Positions 2,545 to 54,864 of a stretch of 64,000 bases of DNA are shown piece by piece. Source of the DNA: a virus. Taxonomy: Duplodnaviria; Caudoviricetes. Every line of letters starts with the position of its first letter. The first letter of the stretch is position 1. The stretch lies in the IMG/VR virus record IMGVR_UViG_2706795344_000001, positions 40,907-104,906 of that record. One strand, written 5' to 3'. The translations under genes were made by a program, and so were the position numbers. A model generated the notes under the pieces. It had not been told where the DNA came from and searched no databases. It was given only the letters and a program-made list of their open reading frames with translations.

Positions 2545-3405
2545 ATGAGACTTTTGATTTCTGCCTTCTTTAACGTTGGCACATGGGACCGTAAATTCTT
2601 ATTGAATGGTGAATTTACAGGTTGGTTTAAGGGACACCTTACCAACCAAGGTCTTGACAGATGTGGTGATAGCTACTGGTATTCTGGTACTCACATTGGT
2701 TCAGGAACGGCAGATATCAGCGACGGTTCGACCACTCTTGCAAATCCATTCATGTTCTTAAGCGAGGCTGTGAGTGATAACTCTACCTCATACCTTAAGG
2801 ATGACTACATTGTTTGGGAAAGGGAAATTGAATACCGTGTTGATGGTAAACAAGCCCCTTCTGTCTCTGAGATTTCAGCATCTTGGGATAACGATGTTAA
2901 AACTGCTGTAGCTGTGGCAAATCTCCCACTCAATATCAGCTTAGGCGATAATGATGATCTAGTAGTTAAGGTTAAATTGGTTGTAAGACAATCTGCTACT
3001 GAGGTTATGACAGGGACTGTTGATTTTGGTGCATCGATTCATCAATACACAATCAAACCTTGTTTCTATAAGAAATTCGATAACTACTTTATTGGCAACC
3101 CTTTATCACAAAAAGATGGTCGTGTCTATAGTGGTGATATTCCTGCTGATATCGCACTAGAGCCAGAAGGTTCAATTGATTCTAACTTAGCTATTTATGA
3201 GAGCTACACATTCAATTCCAGAAGTAGAAAGTTCTCTAACTTCTTCACATTGAGTAGCCCAAATGCTTACACACGTACAGCAACATCACACACAATTGGA
3301 ATTCCTAGCGCATATGGTGTCGAGTTTGAACCGCCTATCGATAAGAGTTTCAACAGAGAACTTACACTGAATTATTTATTGAAATGGGAGAGAGATAATG
3401 GCTAA
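2545..3405 (+). CDS. Putative baseplate/tail structural protein
   Basis: RBS GAGGA, position within baseplate module; no recognised motif. Confidence 0.55.
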   Translation: MRLLISAFFNVGTWDRKFLLNGEFTGWFKGHLTNQGLDRCGDSYWYSGTHIGSGTADISDGSTTLANPFMFLSEAVSDNSTSYLKDDYIVWEREIEYRVDGKQAPSVSEISASWDNDVKTAVAVANLPLNISLGDNDDLVVKVKLVVRQSATEVMTGTVDFGASIHQYTIKPCFYKKFDNYFIGNPLSQKDGRVYSGDIPADIALEPEGSIDSNLAIYESYTFNSRSRKFSNFFTLSSPNAYTRTATSHTIGIPSAYGVEFEPPIDKSFNRELTLNYLLKWERDNG

Positions 3406-5611: not shown

Positions 5612-6226
5612 ATGAAGTTGACAAAGGGTGGTTTTGACATCCTTAGAAGTGAGTTATTTAAGTCATTTACTGAAAGTCAAGTCAATGCACTTAATTTCTT
5701 GGTCATGAAATGTAAGGAAGCTGGCATGACCTACCCTGAGACAGCTTATGCTTTGGCTACAGTATACCACGAAACTGGTGTAGTGAAAGGTGGTAAGCTT
5801 GTAAGGACTATGCTTCCTGTAGAGGAGCAAGGTAGTGACAAATATCTATCTAAATACGATACAGGTAAATTGGCGACATCTCTAGGCAACACTCAAGCTC
5901 TTGATGGTGACGGTCAAAAGTATAAAGGTCGTGGTTATGTTCAGCTTACTGGCACACGTAACTATGCACTCTTTTCCAAACTTTTGGGTGTGGACCTGTT
6001 AGGGGAACCAGAGCTTGCCATGGACCCAGAGATTGCTGCTAAGATCATGACATATGGAATGTTAAATGGTTCCTTTACAGGTGTTGGGTTCAGACGTAAA
6101 CGTCCTGTATCTAAATACAATAAGGCCCAATACATTGCTGCTAGGAATATTATCAACGGTTCAGATCGTGCCAATGATATTGCTGGATATGCTATGATCT
6201 TTGAGAGAGCTTTAAGAAGTTATTAA
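5612..6226 (+). CDS. Endolysin, glycoside hydrolase family 19 (chitinase/lysozyme-like)
   Basis: 'AYALATVYHET', 'DGDGQKYKGRGYVQLTG..NY', 'ARNIING' motifs. Confidence 0.9.
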   Translation: MKLTKGGFDILRSELFKSFTESQVNALNFLVMKCKEAGMTYPETAYALATVYHETGVVKGGKLVRTMLPVEEQGSDKYLSKYDTGKLATSLGNTQALDGDGQKYKGRGYVQLTGTRNYALFSKLLGVDLLGEPELAMDPEIAAKIMTYGMLNGSFTGVGFRRKRPVSKYNKAQYIAARNIINGSDRANDIAGYAMIFERALRSY

Positions 6227-6227
6227 C

Positions 6228-6261
6228 AAAAAGAAAGGGAGCCTAGTGCTCCCTATTTTTA
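6228..6261. terminator. Bidirectional rho-independent terminator between convergent blocks
   Basis: AGGGAGC-ctagt-GCTCCCT stem flanked by A-tract and T-tract. Confidence 0.8.
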
Positions 6262-12339: not shown

Positions 12340-12705
12340 ATGGAAAAGAATTTTGGTAATTTAATTTTAGATTTATTTAAATTAAACACAGGAGATGAGG
12401 TAATTCGTTTAGCAGATTTTAGAATGCTGTCTGCTGAAGGTGTTGAATATAATTTTTTCTTTGGCAATGTTTATAACTTTGAGATTAATCTTGCACACTA
12501 CAGTAAAGAGTTTGTGAAAGGTCAAGGGGATGTACATAACTTTGTGTTATCTGTAACACAGGGTGCTATTAAAAAGTCTTCAATAATTTCTCATGAAGCT
12601 TTAAATATCGTTGGTGAACAAGGTCTCATTAAAACTATTAAACGTATTTGTAATGAAATTATTTCTGAGCGTTTGAATGAAGTGTTAGGGGGTGATAGTG
12701 TCTAA
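12340..12705 (+). CDS. Hypothetical protein
   Basis: RBS AGGAGGT. Confidence 0.6.
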   Translation: MEKNFGNLILDLFKLNTGDEVIRLADFRMLSAEGVEYNFFFGNVYNFEINLAHYSKEFVKGQGDVHNFVLSVTQGAIKKSSIISHEALNIVGEQGLIKTIKRICNEIISERLNEVLGGDSV

Positions 12706-14761
12706 GGATTTAAAACTACGTTTTTTCGCAAGTGACTTGGAGGCAACTGGTTTAATCTGGCAGATGATACAACAAGGTGATGATAAGAAGCTTCATAACT
12801 TTTGTGGTATTGAAATCAAGGATAGTAAGTTTCAAGATATCCAGATGCATCATCCACATACAAAGAAAGCAATTCAACGATTGCAAGATTGGATTGATGA
12901 CCCTGAAAATGTTTTCATTATTCATAATGCCTATACATATGATTTACATGCATTAGAATTATTTGGGTTAGATACATCTAAGATGAAGATTATTGATACT
13001 CTACCGTTATCTTGGTACTTGCATCACGATCGTGAACGTCATGGTCTTGAGTGGTGGGGTGAAGAGTTTGGTGTACCTAAACCGAAGATCGACAATTGGG
13101 AAGACTTAACACAAGAAGAGTATGATCATCGTGTTATAGAGGACTGTAAGATTCAACGATTGTTATGGATGAAGTTGTGTACTGAATTTGGAGAGATGTA
13201 TGGAGTTAAGACTCAAACAGAAGTATATAACCATCCAGCATTTAAGTACATTCAATTTAAGTCTAAGCAATTGGCTGAGCAGATGCGTAATAAGTGGAAA
13301 TTTAATGTAGAGGGTGGTAAGAAACTCTATGAGGAATTAGAAGCTGAAATTGCGACACGTACAGAAACATTGAAGTCTGTAATGCCAAAAGTACCTAAGT
13401 ATGCTAAACGTAAGCCACCAGCTAAACCTTATAAAGCTAATGGTGAACTTTCGGCTACAGGTGAGAAATGGAAAAAACTTTGTGAAGATAATGGGTATGA
13501 TTTTAATACTTATCGAGGTGAGATTCAGGAACTTACTAAGTATGAGGAACCAAACCCTGCATCATCACAACAGAAGAAAGCTTGGTTGACCAGCTTAGGT
13601 TGGGAGCCAATGACCTTTGAATACAAGCGTCAGCCAGATGGTACTACACGTGCTATCCCTCAGATTAATAAGAAAAACTCTGGTGGATTGGTATGTGAGT
13701 CTGTATCTTTACTTGCTGAAGAAGTTCCAGAGGTTAAAGCTTTAGAAGGTCTGGGAATTGTTAACCATCGATTTAGTATGGTTAAAGGTTGGTTAGAGAA
13801 CCATGAAGACGGGTATTTGATTGCACAAGCTGGTGGATTCACAAACACATTACGTTTGAAACACCGTATTCTTGTGAACATGCCTTCTGGTCGTGTACCT
13901 TATGGTTTGGCTATCCGTGGATTGCTTGAGGCACGTGAAGGATGTACATTAACTGGTGCAGACTTAAGTTCCTTGGAGAACCGTTGGAAGTTCCACCATC
14001 AGTACCCTTTAGACCCTGATTATGTAGAGGCACAGATGTCAGATGACTTTGACCCTCACTTAGCACTAGCTGAGATGGCAGGGTTATTAGATGCTGACGA
14101 TGTAAACTTCTATAAATTATTTGAAAGTGGTTACACCATCCCAGAAGAGTGTTATACTGATGAGCTTAAGCGACGTATTGCTAAAGCTGAGAAGGATGAA
14201 GACTGGAAGCACTCAGAGATTAAGCGTATTGCTAAAATCCGTGGTGTTGGTAAAAATGGTAACTATGCTTTACAATATGGTTCTGGTGTTGAGACTTTGG
14301 CCCGTACTGCTAAGATTACAAGAAAAGAAGCTACAAAGCTTAAGGCTGGTTATGATAAACTTAACTGGACTATTCCTGTTATCGCTAAAGCACAGCGTGT
14401 TAAGGATTTCAAACATGGACGATTCTTGTACAATCGTGAGAATAAGTTCTGGTATCCATTAAAGGCTGAGAAAGATAGATTCTCTACTCTTATTCAAGGT
14501 AGTGGTTCTTACACTCTCGACTTGTGGATTATGAAGTTCTTCCAGATTCGCAAGAAAGCTATTGAATCAGGCCGTATTAAGTTTGCTAGATTGTTGGGTA
14601 CATTCCACGATGAATTGATCTTAGAGCACCGTACAGAGGATTCTGAGGCTATTCGTGAGATGTTAAAGGAAGCTATTGACTTAGTTAATAAATCATTAAA
14701 GCTTTCTGTAGACTTGACATGTGATATCAAACAAGGTAATACTTACTCGGAGATACATTAA
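12698..14761 (+). CDS. DNA polymerase family A with 3'-5' exonuclease (T7-like)
   Basis: Exo 'SDLEAT', 'HNAYTYD'; motif A 'ADLSSLENR', motif B 'R...KNGNYALQYG' (Tyr at 762-equivalent), motif C 'FHDE'. Confidence 0.95.
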   Translation: MSKDLKLRFFASDLEATGLIWQMIQQGDDKKLHNFCGIEIKDSKFQDIQMHHPHTKKAIQRLQDWIDDPENVFIIHNAYTYDLHALELFGLDTSKMKIIDTLPLSWYLHHDRERHGLEWWGEEFGVPKPKIDNWEDLTQEEYDHRVIEDCKIQRLLWMKLCTEFGEMYGVKTQTEVYNHPAFKYIQFKSKQLAEQMRNKWKFNVEGGKKLYEELEAEIATRTETLKSVMPKVPKYAKRKPPAKPYKANGELSATGEKWKKLCEDNGYDFNTYRGEIQELTKYEEPNPASSQQKKAWLTSLGWEPMTFEYKRQPDGTTRAIPQINKKNSGGLVCESVSLLAEEVPEVKALEGLGIVNHRFSMVKGWLENHEDGYLIAQAGGFTNTLRLKHRILVNMPSGRVPYGLAIRGLLEAREGCTLTGADLSSLENRWKFHHQYPLDPDYVEAQMSDDFDPHLALAEMAGLLDADDVNFYKLFESGYTIPEECYTDELKRRIAKAEKDEDWKHSEIKRIAKIRGVGKNGNYALQYGSGVETLARTAKITRKEATKLKAGYDKLNWTIPVIAKAQRVKDFKHGRFLYNRENKFWYPLKAEKDRFSTLIQGSGSYTLDLWIMKFFQIRKKAIESGRIKFARLLGTFHDELILEHRTEDSEAIREMLKEAIDLVNKSLKLSVDLTCDIKQGNTYSEIH

Positions 14762-21848: not shown

Positions 21849-21874
21849 AATCCAGCCTTAGTGCTGGATTTTTT
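21849..21874 (+). terminator. Rho-independent terminator
   Basis: AATCCAGC/GCTGGATT stem plus T-tract. Confidence 0.7.
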
Positions 21875-21893
21875 GTTATATAGGAGTAGTAAA

Positions 21894-24800
21894 TTGTCAG
21901 GAAAATATACATCAATCTTAATGCAAGAATCGAACTCATATGTGGATAGATTCCCTCAGTTCGTGGATGCAATTACATTTCAAAAGGAGGATTTGTTCTG
22001 GACAGAGAAAGAGATCAAAGTTGAAAAAGATGAACAGGACTTAAAACATAATATCCTACATTCGCAAGTTCACGCTTTGATGTTCAACCAACGACTCTTT
22101 ACTAAATATGAAGATGTCATTGGTAATGATTACTGGATTGGTGTTGTACATAAGAAGTATAAGTGTCATGAAATTCGAAGACTGGCTATTTGTTTTGCTG
22201 ATGTCGAGAATAACATTCACTTCCCATTCTATCGTCGTGTGAACGAAGTTTTAGGGACCCATAACGATGAATTCTATGATGCATTTGAGACAGACCCTAT
22301 TTTAGTGGAACGTGTTAAATTCATGCAGGAATTGGTGGCATCGAAAGATACACTGGCATCTATGGGTGGATTTGCTTTCATGGAAGGTGCAGTATTATTT
22401 ACAGCATTTGCTATGATCAAGTCTCTCGGTGTTAAAGGTCAGTCATTTATGCCTAATTTGATTTCAGGTATTAACATGTCTATCCTTGACGAGAACTTTC
22501 ACATGCAGACGGCTTGTGAGATTTTCCGTACACAGTTAGAACTTGAGAATCGTACAGAGGAGGATGTTCGTAAGCTTAAAGAGGCCATCTATAAGCATGC
22601 TGAGAATGTCTTGGAACATGAATACATTATCATTAATGCTATGTTAGCTGAAGGTGATATTCCTTTTGCTTCTAAGAAGGAGTTGCAAGCATTTGCTCGT
22701 CACCGTGTTAACGTTGTATTAACAACTTTAGGTTTCCCTGAGTTAGCCACATTTGATGAGACAGATGATACTATCTCTGAGTGGTTCTATGAATTCATGG
22801 GTGGGTATACAAGTAACGATAACTTCTATTCTCGTGGTCGTAACTACAAGAAAGAGTTCTCTGCTGTTGACTATGACATTATCTCAAATGGTGCTGTAGA
22901 GGAAGTACTTGCACAAATCCCTGATGAGTATTTAGACCAAATGGGTATTGACTTGAATCGTAAGTTCGAAAAGACTTTAGAGGAAGAGTTAGAGGCCAAA
23001 CGTCCTAAACGTAAGAAGCACAACAATGCGGAAGATGCTTTATATGTTCCAGATTACAGTCGTGAACGTAAAGAGATGCAAGCACGTGGTGAAGCTCCTG
23101 AGTGGATGGCAACGGCTGGATGGCAGTTATTCAAGAAGAAATATCTTAACGGTGACTGTAAGACTCCAAAAGACCAGTACATGCGTATTGCTAAGTGTTT
23201 AGGGCAGTATGCACCTGAAGTTTACCCTTCTTGGTGGAATACTATTCCATATTGGGCTGGTTTGACATGGGAAGAGGCATTCTTCAAAATCATGTGGGAT
23301 GGTTTCTTAAGTCCTTCAACTCCTGTACTTTCAAACACAGGTACAGATTTTGGTATGTCGGTATCATGCTCTGGTGCTGTAACTGAAGATAGTGTTGCTG
23401 GGTTCTATGACGCTCGTAAGATCAATGCATTACTTTCGAAAGAAGGTTTTGGTACTACAATTGATTTAGATCGTATCCGTGGACGTGGCATGCCAATGAA
23501 GGGTGGTATTGCCAATGGTGCTCTTCCTGTAGCTCGTATGTTCCGTCAGGATGCTTTAGATATCAGCCAAGGCTCACAACGTCGTGGTGCTACAGCTTGG
23601 TATTACAGTGTGGAAGGTTTGGACTTTGATGAATTATTACACTTCTTAGAGTATGATACGGATGGCAATAATGGTGGTTGGAAAATTACTAATGAGCTTC
23701 TTAACCGTGTCTTAATTGGTGATACATTAGCTATTGAACGTTTGAATAAAATCTTAGCTGTTCGACACCATGTAGGTTTGGGTTACGAATTATTTATCGA
23801 TAAGGTGAATGCTCGTCGTCCTCAGATGTACAAAGATCGTGGTATGATGGTTTCTACAAGTAACCTATGTACTGAGATTACATTGTTTAGTGACCCTGAA
23901 CATACATTTACATGTGTATTGTCAAGTGAGAACTTAGTTCGATTTGATGAGCGTCCAGAGAACTTGGCCTTTGTTGGTACAGTGTTCCTTGACTGTGTGG
24001 CTGAAGACTTTATTCAGAAAGGTTCTAAGATCAAAGGTCTTGAAACTGCTGTTGAGTTTACTAAGAAAGGCCGTGCTCTTGGTTATGGTACAATGGGCTT
24101 TGCTTCATACTTAATGCGTAACGACATCGAGTATGGTTCAATGGAATCATTCTGGAAGAATAAGAAGATTTATTCTACCCTTGAAGCAGAAACAAAAGCA
24201 GCTTCTAAATGGTTGGCTAAAGTTCTTGGTGAACCAGAGTGGTGTGAAGGTTATGGTGTTCGTAATACACACTTAATGGCTATCGCTCCTACTAAGTCTA
24301 CAGGCTTATTAATGGGTGGTGACTCTGAGGGTATTAATGTTCCGTCAGCATTTGTATTTGCACAAGATACTCCAGCTGGAACTGTATTCCGTATTGACCC
24401 ATCATTCTTGATGTTGTTGAAACGTAAAGGTCTATATAAAATTGACCCTGAAACAAAACGATTAACACCTGAAACTGAGGCGTTATTAAAACGTGTGTCA
24501 GACAACCTTGGTAGTGTGCAAACATTAACAGATGTCTTGACAGACAAAGAACGTGCTGTATTTAAAACAGCTTATGAGATTAACCAGTACCGTCATATTG
24601 ATTTGTGTGCTCAACGTCAAGAACATATTGACCAAGCTCAATCAATCAACTTATTCATTGCGAATATGTCGGCTCAGGAAATCGCTAAGTTGTATATGTA
24701 TGCTGCACTTAACCCTAATATCTTGAGTTTGTATTACCATACTGGTATTCGTGACTCTCGTATTGGGGAGAATAAAAACGAATGTGAATCTTGTCAATAA
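21894..24800 (+). CDS. Class I ribonucleotide reductase, beta (NrdB) and alpha (NrdA) subunits fused in one ORF
   Basis: Beta: 'FW...EI', 'FTKYE', 'ENNIHFPFY', 'MEG..LF..F', 'DENFH'; alpha: 'SPSTP', 'SC', 'SNLCTEI', 'TCVLSS', 'APT', 'DQAQS.N', 'LYY', C-term 'CESCQ'; TTG start after RBS TAGGAG. Confidence 0.9.
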   Translation: MSGKYTSILMQESNSYVDRFPQFVDAITFQKEDLFWTEKEIKVEKDEQDLKHNILHSQVHALMFNQRLFTKYEDVIGNDYWIGVVHKKYKCHEIRRLAICFADVENNIHFPFYRRVNEVLGTHNDEFYDAFETDPILVERVKFMQELVASKDTLASMGGFAFMEGAVLFTAFAMIKSLGVKGQSFMPNLISGINMSILDENFHMQTACEIFRTQLELENRTEEDVRKLKEAIYKHAENVLEHEYIIINAMLAEGDIPFASKKELQAFARHRVNVVLTTLGFPELATFDETDDTISEWFYEFMGGYTSNDNFYSRGRNYKKEFSAVDYDIISNGAVEEVLAQIPDEYLDQMGIDLNRKFEKTLEEELEAKRPKRKKHNNAEDALYVPDYSRERKEMQARGEAPEWMATAGWQLFKKKYLNGDCKTPKDQYMRIAKCLGQYAPEVYPSWWNTIPYWAGLTWEEAFFKIMWDGFLSPSTPVLSNTGTDFGMSVSCSGAVTEDSVAGFYDARKINALLSKEGFGTTIDLDRIRGRGMPMKGGIANGALPVARMFRQDALDISQGSQRRGATAWYYSVEGLDFDELLHFLEYDTDGNNGGWKITNELLNRVLIGDTLAIERLNKILAVRHHVGLGYELFIDKVNARRPQMYKDRGMMVSTSNLCTEITLFSDPEHTFTCVLSSENLVRFDERPENLAFVGTVFLDCVAEDFIQKGSKIKGLETAVEFTKKGRALGYGTMGFASYLMRNDIEYGSMESFWKNKKIYSTLEAETKAASKWLAKVLGEPEWCEGYGVRNTHLMAIAPTKSTGLLMGGDSEGINVPSAFVFAQDTPAGTVFRIDPSFLMLLKRKGLYKIDPETKRLTPETEALLKRVSDNLGSVQTLTDVLTDKERAVFKTAYEINQYRHIDLCAQRQEHIDQAQSINLFIANMSAQEIAKLYMYAALNPNILSLYYHTGIRDSRIGENKNECESCQ

Positions 24801-45114: not shown

Positions 45115-45336
45115 ATGAAAGCAAAGATTATAGCAAGTCAGGAAAGCCTTATTGGTATGTGTCTTGGCGGTGTTACGGTACAAGGGAAACCACTGGAAGC
45201 TGGGCTAATTATTGAAGTAGAGCTTGCTGATCACGATGTTAGTGGTAATGTATACTCATTCATTGGTGAGCTGGGTGATGATGAAGGTGTCCTATGGTTC
45301 ATCTATGGTGATTTATTAGAGATTATTGAGGAGTAA
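45115..45336 (+). CDS. Hypothetical protein between Adps and Namat
   Basis: RBS GAGGTG. Confidence 0.55.
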   Translation: MKAKIIASQESLIGMCLGGVTVQGKPLEAGLIIEVELADHDVSGNVYSFIGELGDDEGVLWFIYGDLLEIIEE

Positions 45337-45340
45337 TTTA

Positions 45341-47158
45341 ATGACATTTTTGGAAAAGAAAGCTTTACTAGAAGAACAAATGTTTGATGCTGTACCAAAA
45401 GTAAATCCATTCTTATATTGGACAGACTCATATAAAGATTCTCACATTCGTTTCGAAGTTGAAGGTGTTAAGTACATCTATTCAAATGCTACGGCTCGTT
45501 TTGGAACTTACATGCGTGAATTGCTAGGTGATTATTACACTGATGAATTTGTTGTATTTGGTATTCAGTGGATGCTTGCACGTTTCCACGCTATGGCTAA
45601 GATTGGGTTCTTTGATCGACCTAAACAAGAAGTCTTGGATGAGATGTTAGATGTTCTTGGACCTTATATCGGTGAAACTGATGTTAGTCGTTTTGGTGAT
45701 CTGCATGATCTTGGCTATGTACCATTAATCTTTAAGGCATTACCTGAAGGTACAGTTGCACCTATTGGTACTCCATTCTATACATGTGAGAATACATTGC
45801 CAGAGTTCGAGTGGCTATCTAATTTCTTAGAATCTGGTATGTCTACCGATACTTGGAAACAGTTGACAGTTGCTACAGTAGCATATGCTTTCCGTAAGAT
45901 CAGTAACCAGTTTGCTTTGGAGACTCAGGGTACTCTTGAAGGGACAGAGTGGCAGAATCATGACTTCTCAACACGTGGTCAGTCTGGTTTTGAGTCTGGT
46001 GCAATTAATGGTGTAGCATTCTTGCTTAGCTCTTGTGGTACTGACAATAAGCCATCGTTGTGGGCTGCTAAAACATTCTATATGAGTGAGAACTCAAGTG
46101 ATGTAGTGTTATGTGGTTCTGTTCCTGCTGGTGAGCATAGTGTTTCGACGTTAGGTATTCAGTCTTATATTAAAAAGGCTCAGATGGATGGTGAAGAGTT
46201 ATCTTTACTTGATGCGGAAATTAAGTACGCTAAGTTTATCGCTACTGAACGTTTCCCTAAAGGTATTGTCTCTTATGTCGCAGATTCATATGATTATTGG
46301 TCATTCATTACTAAAGTTCTTCCAGCTATTAAAGAAGATATTTTGGCTCGTGATGGTAAATTTGTTGTTCGGGGTGACTCTGGCAATCCTATTAATATTA
46401 TTGCTGGCTATCGTATTTTCGATGCTGATACAGATACTCGTGTTAAAGGTAAATTTAATACCATTACTCAGTTGATGTTGAACACACATTTATGGTGGGA
46501 CTCTAAATGGGAAGTGGTTAAATTTAAAGACCAGTATTACCGTATTACCGAAGAGGGTATCGGCATTGAGGAAATCTCAGGTGAAGAGGCTCACGGAACT
46601 ATTCAATGTCTGTGGAATGAGTTTGGTGGCACTGTAAATGATCTTGGATTTAAACATTTAGATTCTCATATTGGTATGATTTATGGTGATGGGATTACCA
46701 TCCAACGCTCTGTGGAAATCTTATCTCGATTAAAAGAGAAAGGTTTTGCATCTACTAACATTGTGTTTGGTGTAGGTAGCTACTCGTTGAACATGTTGTC
46801 TCGTGACCATCTTGGTATTGCTATTAAGGCAACCAATGCAATCATTGACATTAATGGTGAAGACGTAGAGATGCCAATCTACAAGGACCCTAAGACAGAT
46901 ACAAGCAAGAAATCTGCTAAAGGTTATTTGGTGGTATCTGCTGATAAAGAGGGTAACATCATTACTTTGGATGAACAGAGTCGTGAAGCAGCTTTACGTA
47001 CAGGACTATTAGAAACTGTGTATATGAATGGGCAATTCCAAGTATTAACTACAGTACCAGAGATTCGTGAACGTTTGTGGAATCCTAAGTCCTTAGCTCC
47101 TCCTGTAGTTGAAGAGCCAGAAGCTGAGCAAACTCAACCAGAGGAGTCTGTAGAGTAA
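45341..47158 (+). CDS. Nampt-like protein; probable nicotinamide ADPR-transferase (Namat) of NARP1
   Basis: 'TDSYK.SH', 'LPEG', 'HDFS.RG', 'GTD', 'SVPA.EHS', 'DSYD', 'R.DSG.P', 'IYGDGIT', 'FGVGS', 'KKSAKG'. Confidence 0.88.
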   Translation: MTFLEKKALLEEQMFDAVPKVNPFLYWTDSYKDSHIRFEVEGVKYIYSNATARFGTYMRELLGDYYTDEFVVFGIQWMLARFHAMAKIGFFDRPKQEVLDEMLDVLGPYIGETDVSRFGDLHDLGYVPLIFKALPEGTVAPIGTPFYTCENTLPEFEWLSNFLESGMSTDTWKQLTVATVAYAFRKISNQFALETQGTLEGTEWQNHDFSTRGQSGFESGAINGVAFLLSSCGTDNKPSLWAAKTFYMSENSSDVVLCGSVPAGEHSVSTLGIQSYIKKAQMDGEELSLLDAEIKYAKFIATERFPKGIVSYVADSYDYWSFITKVLPAIKEDILARDGKFVVRGDSGNPINIIAGYRIFDADTDTRVKGKFNTITQLMLNTHLWWDSKWEVVKFKDQYYRITEEGIGIEEISGEEAHGTIQCLWNEFGGTVNDLGFKHLDSHIGMIYGDGITIQRSVEILSRLKEKGFASTNIVFGVGSYSLNMLSRDHLGIAIKATNAIIDINGEDVEMPIYKDPKTDTSKKSAKGYLVVSADKEGNIITLDEQSREAALRTGLLETVYMNGQFQVLTTVPEIRERLWNPKSLAPPVVEEPEAEQTQPEESVE

Positions 47159-52629: not shown

Positions 52630-52980
52630 ATGAAAAAGTTAGTTAAAGAATTCCATGAACATAGCTTAAAGCAGCGTAATACCAAGCGTACAAGTAAGAT
52701 GCTCTGCGATGCTGCATTCTACATCATGAATAGCAAAAGCAGTAGAGAAGCTATTATTGTGGGAGCTACTGAGCATCATTTAGCTGAGATGAAGGCTACA
52801 GCAAATCGACTTTTCAATTCTCACATAGCATGTTCTATGGTATTCGTGACAAGAAGTGCCTTAGATGACAAAGTTAAAGGTAGAAATGAGAAAACTTACA
52901 AGGTGTTCTATGACCACTTTGCTTTAGAGTCAGAGATTGCTAAACTGTTAGTAGAGTACACCAAGTACGAGGAGAACTAA
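52630..52980 (+). CDS. Small degenerate P-loop-like protein (paralog 1)
   Basis: 'RNTKRT.KML..A', 'IIVGAT', 'VKG....VFYDH'. Confidence 0.55.
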   Translation: MKKLVKEFHEHSLKQRNTKRTSKMLCDAAFYIMNSKSSREAIIVGATEHHLAEMKATANRLFNSHIACSMVFVTRSALDDKVKGRNEKTYKVFYDHFALESEIAKLLVEYTKYEEN

Positions 52981-53361
52981 GTGGAAAGAATACCTAAAGA
53001 TATGAAAGAGGCATCGGAACATTTTAGGGCTATTAGTTCTTTTAAACATAGAATTAATCGAAGTGTTCGAATGCTTTGTCAGGCATTGTTCCATGTGTCA
53101 AATGGCTATTCTGGAAATCATTCTATAGTTGTTGCTTTGGATGAAGATCATAAGAAACAGCTAGAAGATAAAGCTAAGGAGATGTTCTCTACTGAGGTAC
53201 TTAAACATATTGGATTCATTAGTTACGAAAAGTATAAGAAGTTTAATAGGGAAGGTGAGGTGGTAGGTTTAAAATATTTTATCGACCCTGCTTGCCTTGA
53301 AGATGATATCGCTGTACTATTAAAGAAGTGGGAACAGTACGATGACCCAAGAGATTATTAA
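52981..53361 (+). CDS. Small degenerate P-loop-like protein (paralog 2)
   Basis: Colinear with paralog 1: 'HRINRS.RMLC.A', 'IVVA', 'YFIDP..LE..IA.LL....Y'. Confidence 0.55.
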   Translation: MERIPKDMKEASEHFRAISSFKHRINRSVRMLCQALFHVSNGYSGNHSIVVALDEDHKKQLEDKAKEMFSTEVLKHIGFISYEKYKKFNREGEVVGLKYFIDPACLEDDIAVLLKKWEQYDDPRDY

Positions 53362-53372
53362 CGGAGACTGAT

Positions 53373-53879
53373 ATGTCACACTTTGGTATAGACCCAAGAG
53401 CAGCTAAAGAATTTTGGAATGAGAAAACCAAAGAGCCATTCGATTTTGACTGGAAAGAAATCAATGCAGATATGGCTGCTGCTGTAGTACACAACCTAAG
53501 AGTATGTGAGGCGTTCCTATTTGGACGTTTCCCTAGCGCTGAGGAAGCTAAGGAACATATCGATGTGTGGGCAGAGTGGCAAGAGATACGTCGTAATAAC
53601 CCTGTAAGCTTCTTCAAGCCACGAAAGATGCCAAACGTTGGAACTATAGGGTATCCAGAAGAACCTTGCTTAAACGAGCTTACACGCTTAATTAGAGGTA
53701 GTATTGCTAAGGACGAACTGTGTATGGTGGTTGGTAAACCTACAAATGCATCTACTGTACGTCCTGAAGTGTTGGAGTTTTATAAGAGTCGTCGTAGTAG
53801 TAATCCTATATTGCATGTAGCTCTTGAAGACACTAAGCCTTATCTAATTGATAGGTACTTAGGAACCTCAATAAAATAA
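53373..53879 (+). CDS. Hypothetical protein
   Basis: RBS GGAG; C-half loosely resembles DnaB pre-Walker A segment. Confidence 0.55.
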   Translation: MSHFGIDPRAAKEFWNEKTKEPFDFDWKEINADMAAAVVHNLRVCEAFLFGRFPSAEEAKEHIDVWAEWQEIRRNNPVSFFKPRKMPNVGTIGYPEEPCLNELTRLIRGSIAKDELCMVVGKPTNASTVRPEVLEFYKSRRSSNPILHVALEDTKPYLIDRYLGTSIK

Positions 53880-53895
53880 TCTTGGAGATTTTGAT

Positions 53896-54096
53896 ATGAG
53901 TCATGACTTACACACAAGAACAGCTATGTGGATGTTTGATGTTGGGGCTAGTGAAGTGACGGAAACTCAGAGACGTGGAGCTAAAGCATATAACTATGCT
54001 AAACAGTATGGAGCTAGTAATACAACAGCTACTGTTGAAGCCATCAAAGCTATGCGAGAGGGTAAGTGTGAAGTGTACAGGAATGAGGGAGCTTAG
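53896..54096 (+). CDS. Stand-alone family A polymerase fingers/O-helix mini-protein
   Basis: 'DLHTRTA...F.....EVT..QRR.AKA.NY...YG.S' matches PolA motif B region; RBS GGAG. Confidence 0.7.
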   Translation: MSHDLHTRTAMWMFDVGASEVTETQRRGAKAYNYAKQYGASNTTATVEAIKAMREGKCEVYRNEGA

Positions 54097-54108
54097 GCTC
54101 TCTTTTTT
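54086..54108 (+). terminator. Rho-independent terminator
   Basis: AGGGAGC-ttag-GCTCTCT plus T-tract. Confidence 0.75.
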
Positions 54109-54113
54109 ATTGT

Positions 54114-54193
54114 CCAGATATTCCCTAGATATTTCCAGATATTCCAGCAAATTGCAAAAAGTTTTGAAAAGTTTTTGAAAAATTTTGAATTTT
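54114..54193. repeat. Three AGATATT repeats and phased A/T tracts
   Basis: AGATATT at 54116, 54127, 54137; AAAA(G)TTTTG units about every 10-11 bp. Confidence 0.7.
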
Positions 54194-54195
54194 CC

Positions 54196-54224
54196 TTGAC
54201 ACCTATGTATGTTATAAATATAAT
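54196..54224 (+). promoter_or_regulatory. Perfect-consensus sigma70 promoter
   Basis: TTGACA-17-TATAAT. Confidence 0.85.
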
Positions 54225-54230
54225 GAAATC

Positions 54231-54448
54231 TCTTTAATGTAGTAAGTTAATAAGTTGATTTAAGATTGGTGGCATTGCAGTGCCAAGTATATAGGAGTGT
54301 TGGGTATGTGAACTTATGTGGTAGATAGGTGTGACACTATGGAAGATTGGTAGACGAAGTGCTATACATTTCCAGCATCTTGATGGAGGTTCATGAAAGT
54401 GTCTAATGAGCTGTGAGAAATTGCCCATGCTTTGTCGTGGGCTTTTTT
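54231..54448 (+). ncRNA. Candidate ~215-nt small RNA
   Basis: Between consensus promoter and terminator GCCCATG/CGTGGGC-T6; no sizeable sense ORF. Confidence 0.5.
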
Positions 54449-54864
54449 GTGCCTGTCTGTCTGGCCTGAAAAAATTTTTAGAGGGCATGATGACTTTTGA
54501 AAATTAGAGTGAGATTACAGGAATATCCATTTTTACAACTTGGGTTAAATTTAAACACCTTGGATTTTGAAGAAACTGAAAAGTTAGAGTTTGTCAATAG
54601 GTATTAACAAAAAATATTGAATTATTTTTATTGACTTTAATTATCATCTATTGTATTCACATGCGCCCGCTCTTTATAAACGTGACCTTGTTTTGTTGTG
54701 GTGATAGTATGAAAGGTATAAAGAGACATTCCAAATGATTATTTAGAACTATAAATTTATTTAATTCATGCACTTATAAAATTTATATAAAATTTTCTTG
54801 CATTTATTTTTAGATTGTTTACTATGTGCTTATCGAAACGAAACAAGCCTAGAAAGGTGATGAG

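Follow-up and report, generated by a model that had tools for sequence, protein, structure and literature searches.

Why should a phage that encodes a full-length DNA polymerase I (PolA) also carry, far from it, a separate gene for a protein of 66 residues resembling a small piece of the polymerase fingers? The locus belongs to the 104,906-bp genome of an Acinetobacter phage of the genus Saclayvirus, of which the right-hand 64 kb (64,000 nucleotides, hereafter called the window) was analysed, and for this gene the nearest named relative is KissB, with 95% protein identity. The ORF is intact, and the preliminary description, made from the letters only, had credited it with a ribosome-binding site, a start and a stop of its own; GGAG, ATG and TAG are all present (Table 1). 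The gene (here called the mini-gene, and its product the mini-protein) is the final member of a run of small genes on the same strand. Sigma-70-like sites in its vicinity do not exceed the number found in shuffled sequences, so that the site lying upstream of it can be listed as a possible promoter only, and transcription may alternatively occur by read-through from the upstream operon. The terminator stem at its end is retained in five of six genomes compared by DNA alignment and is missing in CP14, where the ORF reads on. Scans for Rfam families and tRNAs near the gene gave nothing significant, and neither a group I intron nor an endonuclease gene was found beside it in the window.

Table 1. 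Features of the mini-gene, its surroundings and the phage polymerase, in window coordinates
Feature	Position	Strand	Basis
Mini-protein gene, 66 aa plus stop	53896..54096	+	ORF list; Pfam, NCBIfam, PDB and BLASTP matches
Ribosome-binding site GGAG, 8 nt 5′ of ATG	53884..53887	+	Sequence reading
Possible sigma-70-like promoter, weak match (10/12)	53848..53877	+	Consensus scan
Terminator-like hairpin followed by T run; TAG stop inside loop	54085..54104	+	Scan
168-aa upstream gene	53373..53879	+	Annotated regions; context of mini-gene
Predicted helix 1, residues 5-14, corresponding to PolA helix N; D4-x-H6 at its start	53908..53937	+	AlphaFold2
Predicted helix 2, residues 23-37, corresponding to O-helix (motif B); carries Q25, R26, K30, N33	53962..54006	+	AlphaFold2
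Predicted helix 3, residues 42-62, corresponding to helix O1 plus allele-specific tail	54019..54081	+	AlphaFold2
Full-length PolA	12692-14761		Pfam

The likeness to Pol I fingers turned out to be just as it had been described. BLASTP aligned residues 4–41 of the mini-protein to residues 732–769 of E. coli K-12 Pol I without a gap and with 17 of 38 positions identical (E 2e-7), and in this alignment the triphosphate-binding His, Arg and Lys are retained together with the Tyr that follows them, H6, R26, K30 and Y38 being equivalent to H734, R754, K758 and Y766; Y34 stands in the place of F762. The search with the DNA_pol_A HMM that had been proposed as a check gave a match (PF00476, E 1e-8, 35.0 bits) above the curated cut-off of 34.3, covering profile positions 184–225 of 381, while in the NCBIfam Pol I models the mini-protein covers positions 692–732 of 889, and across Pfam and PHROG polymerase families were the only ones matched. 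The best relatives of solved structure, at the same place, are Bst, Taq and Klenow: phmmer against the PDB matched residues 383–421 of Bst Pol I, 21 of 39 being identical by our own count, as well as Klenow 408–446. Motif B, that is the O-helix (R-x3-K-x7-Y with an upstream D-x-H), is present, and the catalytic Asp of motif A (E. coli D705), motif C (D882/E883) and the palm are absent from the 66 residues. An AlphaFold2 model based on an alignment of 26 family members has a pLDDT of 86 and consists of three helices only, with neither a thumb nor a 3′–5′ exonuclease (or an inactive scaffold of one); Y38 sits just past the end of the second helix, residues 58–66 are of low confidence, and this C-terminal tail is missing in the 55-aa alleles. 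In Foldseek the best PDB matches were all Pol I fingers, with query TM-scores of up to 0.63, and the fold matches included 1KFD, a Klenow–dNTP/PPi binary complex. From the homology and the structure matches together it follows that the mini-protein corresponds to PolA helices N, O and O1. Compared with the fingers of Klenow (732–769), Bst (383–421) and Taq, it has the same three-helix layout in the model and retains the equivalents of H734, R754, K758, N761 and Y766, but it is free and lacks the rest of the enzyme, the equivalents of F762 and G767 are not conserved in its subfamily, and the position of I760 is aromatic in nearly all members. Since the palm carboxylates, the thumb and the exonuclease have all been lost, polymerisation by the mini-protein is excluded, and there is in our opinion little doubt that it is a domesticated, catalytically dead fingertip of a family A polymerase.

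The phage's own PolA looks different in precisely this region. A long insert had been noticed there, and by our own count 63 residues lie between D-P-H and the motif B Arg, against 22 in E. coli, which makes about 41 extra residues. Pfam recognises this PolA from motif B onward only (profile positions 205–380), and because of this and of the extra residues it can be regarded as a divergent polymerase with an unusual insertion in the fingers. The preliminary description had called the mini-protein unlike it, and BLASTP between the two indeed gave an E-value of 0.085 over 19 residues; in the motif B codons 34 of 57 bases are identical between the mini-gene and the phage polA. On these protein and DNA values the possibility that the mini-gene is a recent copy of the phage polA was rejected. 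Another candidate was a subunit of a split polymerase, as in some T7-like phages where the exonuclease and polymerase domains of a family A enzyme are encoded by separate genes (PMC10201439). The mini-gene resembles these systems in that a piece of PolA is encoded separately, but their pieces jointly rebuild one enzyme, whereas the mini-protein duplicates PolA rather than completing it: the phage PolA keeps a D-P-H and a motif B of its own, so that there is no gap for the mini-protein to fill. The partner that a split enzyme would need is therefore without a missing segment, and exactly one full PolA and one mini-protein were found in each of the five genomes checked. As to remnants, a six-frame search of the whole 104.9-kb genome with PF00476 at E≤10 matched only the real PolA and the mini-gene, 41 kb apart, and hence there are no polA remnants around the mini-gene; the flanks, from which none had been recognised before, gave no further match, and decayed polA sequence on either side was accordingly rejected.

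Conservation within the genus is complete. Intact syntenic homologues of 55–69 aa are present in 16 of 16 Saclayvirus records, and in all nine relatives whose annotation was read the homologue directly follows the same 168-aa gene, which is the immediate neighbour in nine of nine relatives fetched and abuts the mini-gene in D22 and P1. In pairwise NG86 comparisons of Saclayvirus alleles the dN/dS of the mini-gene is 0.07–0.27 wherever dS is unsaturated (for example, dN 0.089 and dS 0.83 for phi1_092033 versus Aci01-1), the comparisons involving the window's own allele being saturated. The neighbouring 168-aa gene has values of 0.07–0.72, mostly 0.2–0.6, and given the lower range of the mini-gene the constraint on it is no weaker than that on its neighbour. 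Judged by these comparisons of sequence, the mini-gene is kept by purifying selection. The term domesticated domain, which had been applied to it at the outset, is thus well chosen: no relative has a broken copy, purifying selection acts on the ORF, no decayed polA surrounds it, and a wider family of mini-proteins includes it. At the same time the window's allele is only 37–49% identical in protein to the other Saclayvirus alleles, with flanking DNA that is about 90% identical, and the mini-gene therefore behaves like an exchangeable cassette with conserved borders, the 3′ one being formed by the terminator stem, where the last residues are encoded. The other Saclayvirus mini-proteins (55–69 aa, for example Liucustia_138 and Aci05 gp036) share its core and invariant residues; the window's allele differs from them as a divergent cassette with an 11-residue tail.

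These data bear directly on the possibility that the mini-gene is a functionless relic, either left over from a polymerase swap or carried as a flank by a homing endonuclease. Polymerase swapping has been documented in the clade that contains Saclayvirus (PMC11348598), which would provide for such leftovers, and an HNH endonuclease gene lies 27 bp 3′ of the mini-gene in Aci05, as another does about 900 bp upstream of the 60-aa version in Pectobacterium phage PPWS2. However, a relic would hardly combine an ORF intact in every record and under the selection described above with its own ribosome-binding site and terminator, 41 kb away from the replication module in a genome without other polA-like sequence; its nearest relatives are, moreover, other mini-proteins and not full polymerases, and among the nine relatives with the locus annotation read only Aci05 has an endonuclease as neighbour. 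Taken together, the sequence comparisons make a functionless relic very unlikely. The more specific idea of an exon or flank remnant left by a homing endonuclease was dropped, as there is no endonuclease or intron here and the ORF is under purifying selection. The HNH genes near the mini-genes of Aci05 (at 2695–3261 of the Aci05 locus fetched) and PPWS2 are probably a matter of coincidental intergenic homing.

The family to which the mini-protein belongs extends well beyond Saclayvirus. When 1.84 billion representative proteins were searched exhaustively with phmmer, nine matched at E≤1e-3, seven of them of 58–105 aa, including one on a 234-bp assembly scrap, and a profile search added 23 further members of 55–105 aa, several from contigs of 31–94 kb; stand-alone homologues of the kind that a survey had been suggested to look for thus exist. 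The members are free ORFs with a start and a stop of their own, on contigs of 31–102 kb. Down to 32% identity, D4, H6, V21, Q25, R26, K30, N33 and Y38 are invariant in 26 of 26 members, and the resulting core, D-x-H ... Q-R-x3-K-x2-N-x4-Y, is present in the window's mini-protein. Type 1, the form found in the window, begins directly at D-x-H, and its position equivalent to F762 is occupied by Y, V, T, I, L or F. Type 2, which is metagenomic and 70–77 aa long, has an extra N-terminal helix that corresponds to the motif A region without its catalytic Asp. A third form is a 60-aa ORF of Pectobacterium phages CX5 and PPWS2 (Autographiviridae, T7-like), which in PPWS2 is ORF5, the fifth gene from the left end, in the early region; it appears to be a separate derivation, since it is closer to full-length polymerases than to the other mini-proteins. 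Both the type 2 and the Pectobacterium forms are stand-alone small ORFs with the same core and invariant residues as in the window, and differ from the window's form by an extra N-terminal segment left over from motif A, in which the catalytic Asp is lacking.

A first scan of IMG/VR returned, besides the full-length polymerases that made up most of its matches, the single Saclayvirus mini-gene, two longer partial frames and, in a 288-kb contig, an open frame of 131 aa; in a second scan all open frames were of polymerase size. The 131-aa frame, at 5845–6240 of the stretch fetched from this high-GC jumbo-phage contig, covers PolA from D-I-H to motif B, and its polymerase likeness stops right after the Y-G of motif B and gives way to unrelated sequence; such an end could mark the junction of an intein or intron, or a frameshift, within a polymerase gene. 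Two JGI metagenome scans gave no match, and none of the four matches of a GTDB scan, at 36–42% identity, was closely related to the type 2 mini-proteins. Small proteins of similar appearance are present in BFVD for further phages, among them Maribacter phage Colly_1 and Acinetobacter virus fBenAci002. In public annotation the mini-proteins are called 'hypothetical protein', except in phi1_092033 and PPWS2 where they are labelled 'DNA polymerase', and this label is wrong. No paper describing PolA-fingertip mini-proteins was found in our literature search. The domain itself is very well known; the mini-protein presents it in stand-alone form, in a family that is undescribed in the literature searched. 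Surveys of family A polymerases throw such ORFs out as fragments; in a reclassification of these enzymes, all sequences of less than 350 aa were dropped (PMC10201439).

What, then, might a fingertip do on its own? Three roles had been suggested at the outset: a nucleotide or pyrophosphate sponge, a decoy for polymerase-sensing immunity, and a dominant-negative of host Pol I interactions. In the mechanism that we propose, the mini-gene, at the end of a cluster of small accessory genes, would give rise to a free three-helix protein acting as a non-catalytic binder through the retained phosphate-gripping face, that is H6, R26 and K30 with Y38. In the ternary or binary complexes of Klenow, Taq and Bst, H734, R754 and K758 contact the triphosphate of the dNTP and Y766 stacks on the template base, F762 being the residue that contacts the sugar. 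In the mini-proteins the triphosphate contacts and the Tyr are invariant and the sugar-contacting position is variable, a pattern that favours ligand binding and would be expected if the module still gripped a phosphate-rich, nucleotide-like ligand without placing it for chemistry. The putative ligand would be nucleotide-like, for instance a nucleoside triphosphate, pyrophosphate, another phosphorylated nucleotide or a nucleic-acid end, and since the F762 equivalent varies and the G767 equivalent is not kept, it would not be gripped in the way in which a polymerase grips a dNTP. The role of the protein would be an accessory one, in host interaction or regulation, rather than in replication chemistry. 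It counts against a binder that a protein of 55–66 residues by itself shows no obvious pocket. In the parent fold, too, conservation is strongest at just these invariant positions, which may in part have been kept for structural reasons. Besides, alleles of the same genus diverge by more than 50% in protein, and an arms race with a host protein would account for this no less well than the binding of a fixed small molecule. The ligand-binding mechanism, of which the binding, the ligand and the biological role are all inferred, is put forward here as a tentative and rather doubtful proposal. For the explanation as a whole, a domesticated fingertip acting as a non-catalytic nucleotide-type binder, which we consider the best, we estimate a probability of roughly 45%. 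Small phage proteins that bind nucleotides without catalysis are known in the form of the sponges Tad1, Tad2 and Acb2. These are small phage accessory proteins, too, and nucleotide binding by the mini-protein would be a possible analogy only, as they have no sequence or fold relationship to it.

Instead of a nucleotide, the fingertip scaffold could now bind DNA, RNA or the phage replisome in a role that has nothing to do with nucleotide gripping, and the mini-protein would then be a small, basic regulator or binder of nucleic acid. Helices O and O1 of Pol I make up the template pre-insertion site, and a fingertip with an affinity for nucleic acid would be in keeping with this, as it would with the co-occurrence of a full PolA in the five genomes mentioned above. 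The charge of the proteins gives a divided answer: most alleles are strongly basic with a pI of 9–10 (10.0 for the 55-aa type, 9.9 for a type 2 member and 9.1 for D22), but the window's allele is near neutral (7.9) and the Pectobacterium form is acidic (5.6). No DNA-binding family was matched in Pfam, PHROG or NCBIfam either, and altogether we hold a nucleic-acid binder to be improbable.

Yet another reading takes the mini-protein for a mimic or decoy, a fingertip that is shown to a host defence sensor, to an inhibitor of family A polymerases or to a partner of host Pol I, which would thereby be blocked or titrated. The setting is an accessory one, in a cluster beside consensus sigma-70 promoters in the window and, in PPWS2, in the early region. 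Divergent alleles between conserved flanks are often seen for counter-defence genes, and the cassette-like divergence of the window's allele would be of this kind. The independent origin of a similar form in phages without kinship can also be counted in favour of a decoy, as can the existence of at least one defence system, Borvo, that is triggered by phage family A polymerases (bioRxiv 10.1101/2022.08.27.505566). The published escape mutations from Borvo, however, map to the proofreading cleft and not to the fingers (same source). The mini-protein would also make a poor copy of the phage's own PolA, to judge from the E-value of 0.085, and thus of what the sensor is meant to see, and its invariant residues face into the active-site cleft instead of lying on an exposed surface. 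Among the Pfam and PHROG matches there was no known anti-defence family, and PADLOC, which covers defence and not anti-defence proteins, gave no match. That the mini-protein should deceive sensors of the phage PolA itself is therefore disfavoured, because of the small likeness to PolA and the position of the invariant residues inside the cleft, and a mimic or decoy in the wider sense appears somewhat unlikely. In a more general scheme, fingertip mini-proteins would be widespread and repeatedly evolved counter-defence or replication-control factors, free triphosphate-gripping modules whose rapid allele swapping in Saclayvirus would reflect an arms race with host immunity. They might act, for example, by sequestering an inhibitory or signalling nucleotide of the host or by shielding the substrate site of the phage polymerase. 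This extension is, in our view, unlikely.

Several observations concern the surroundings of the mini-gene and other genes of the window. The 168-aa protein encoded upstream has no Pfam, PHROG, PADLOC or NCBIfam match; in its family the first 15 residues are invariant and the C-terminal half is almost invariant, and residues ~16–80 are hypervariable and mosaic between phages. The mosaic does not follow the alleles of the mini-gene, as P1 combines a D22-like neighbour with an Aci-type mini-gene. An AlphaFold2 model of the 168-aa protein from a two-sequence alignment reached a pLDDT of 38, too low to be of use, and the ESM Atlas gave no usable match. Directly upstream of the 168-aa gene are two tandem paralogues of PHROG 5437 (52630–52980 and 52981–53361, E 1e-36 each), for which no terminase match was obtained in Pfam at E≤1. 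The idea that these neighbours represent fragments of terminase and DnaB, forming a 'decoy island', was not supported by the tests run: a six-frame search with DnaB_C found the true primase-helicase only, the 168-aa family and the phage helicase, compared by hhalign, gave a probability of 0.5%, and a PDB profile search yielded only E-values of about 0.6–0.9.

Downstream of the mini-gene there is a gene-free stretch of 760 bp (54100–54860) that is 92% identical across six Saclayvirus genomes, a conservation far above that of the adjacent coding genes. Right after the terminator it carries three tandem copies of a CAGATATTCC-like motif of ~10 bp, and it also contains T/A-rich GAAAA repeats. A perfect sigma-70 promoter (TTGACA-17-TATAAT, 54196–54224) starts about 100 bp downstream of the mini-gene and is followed by a nearly invariant stretch of ~200 nt that ends in a terminator (54423–54442). 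The RNA fold is no more stable than that of shuffled sequences (z 0.01), and no Rfam match was found; this could be a small RNA, a regulatory region or an origin region. Elsewhere in the window, an ORF of 979 aa (21861–24800) has a ribonucleotide reductase small-chain domain (residues 40–295) followed by large-chain domains (419–948), and from this domain order looks like a fused NrdB-NrdA polypeptide. A protein of 610 aa (45326–47158) contains a domain of the nicotinate phosphoribosyltransferase family and is a candidate for NAD salvage or reconstitution by the phage, a known type of counter-defence.

The O-helix has been studied very well and is, to our knowledge, known only as part of a polymerase. 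The existence of copies that are free and selectively maintained, in phages unrelated to each other, means that the fingertip has a use of its own. The mini-protein is small and soluble-looking and offers four obvious residues for mutation. If a nucleotide or a host factor is bound, it would represent a new type of phage accessory protein and a minimal natural module for the recognition of triphosphates by the polymerase fingertip.
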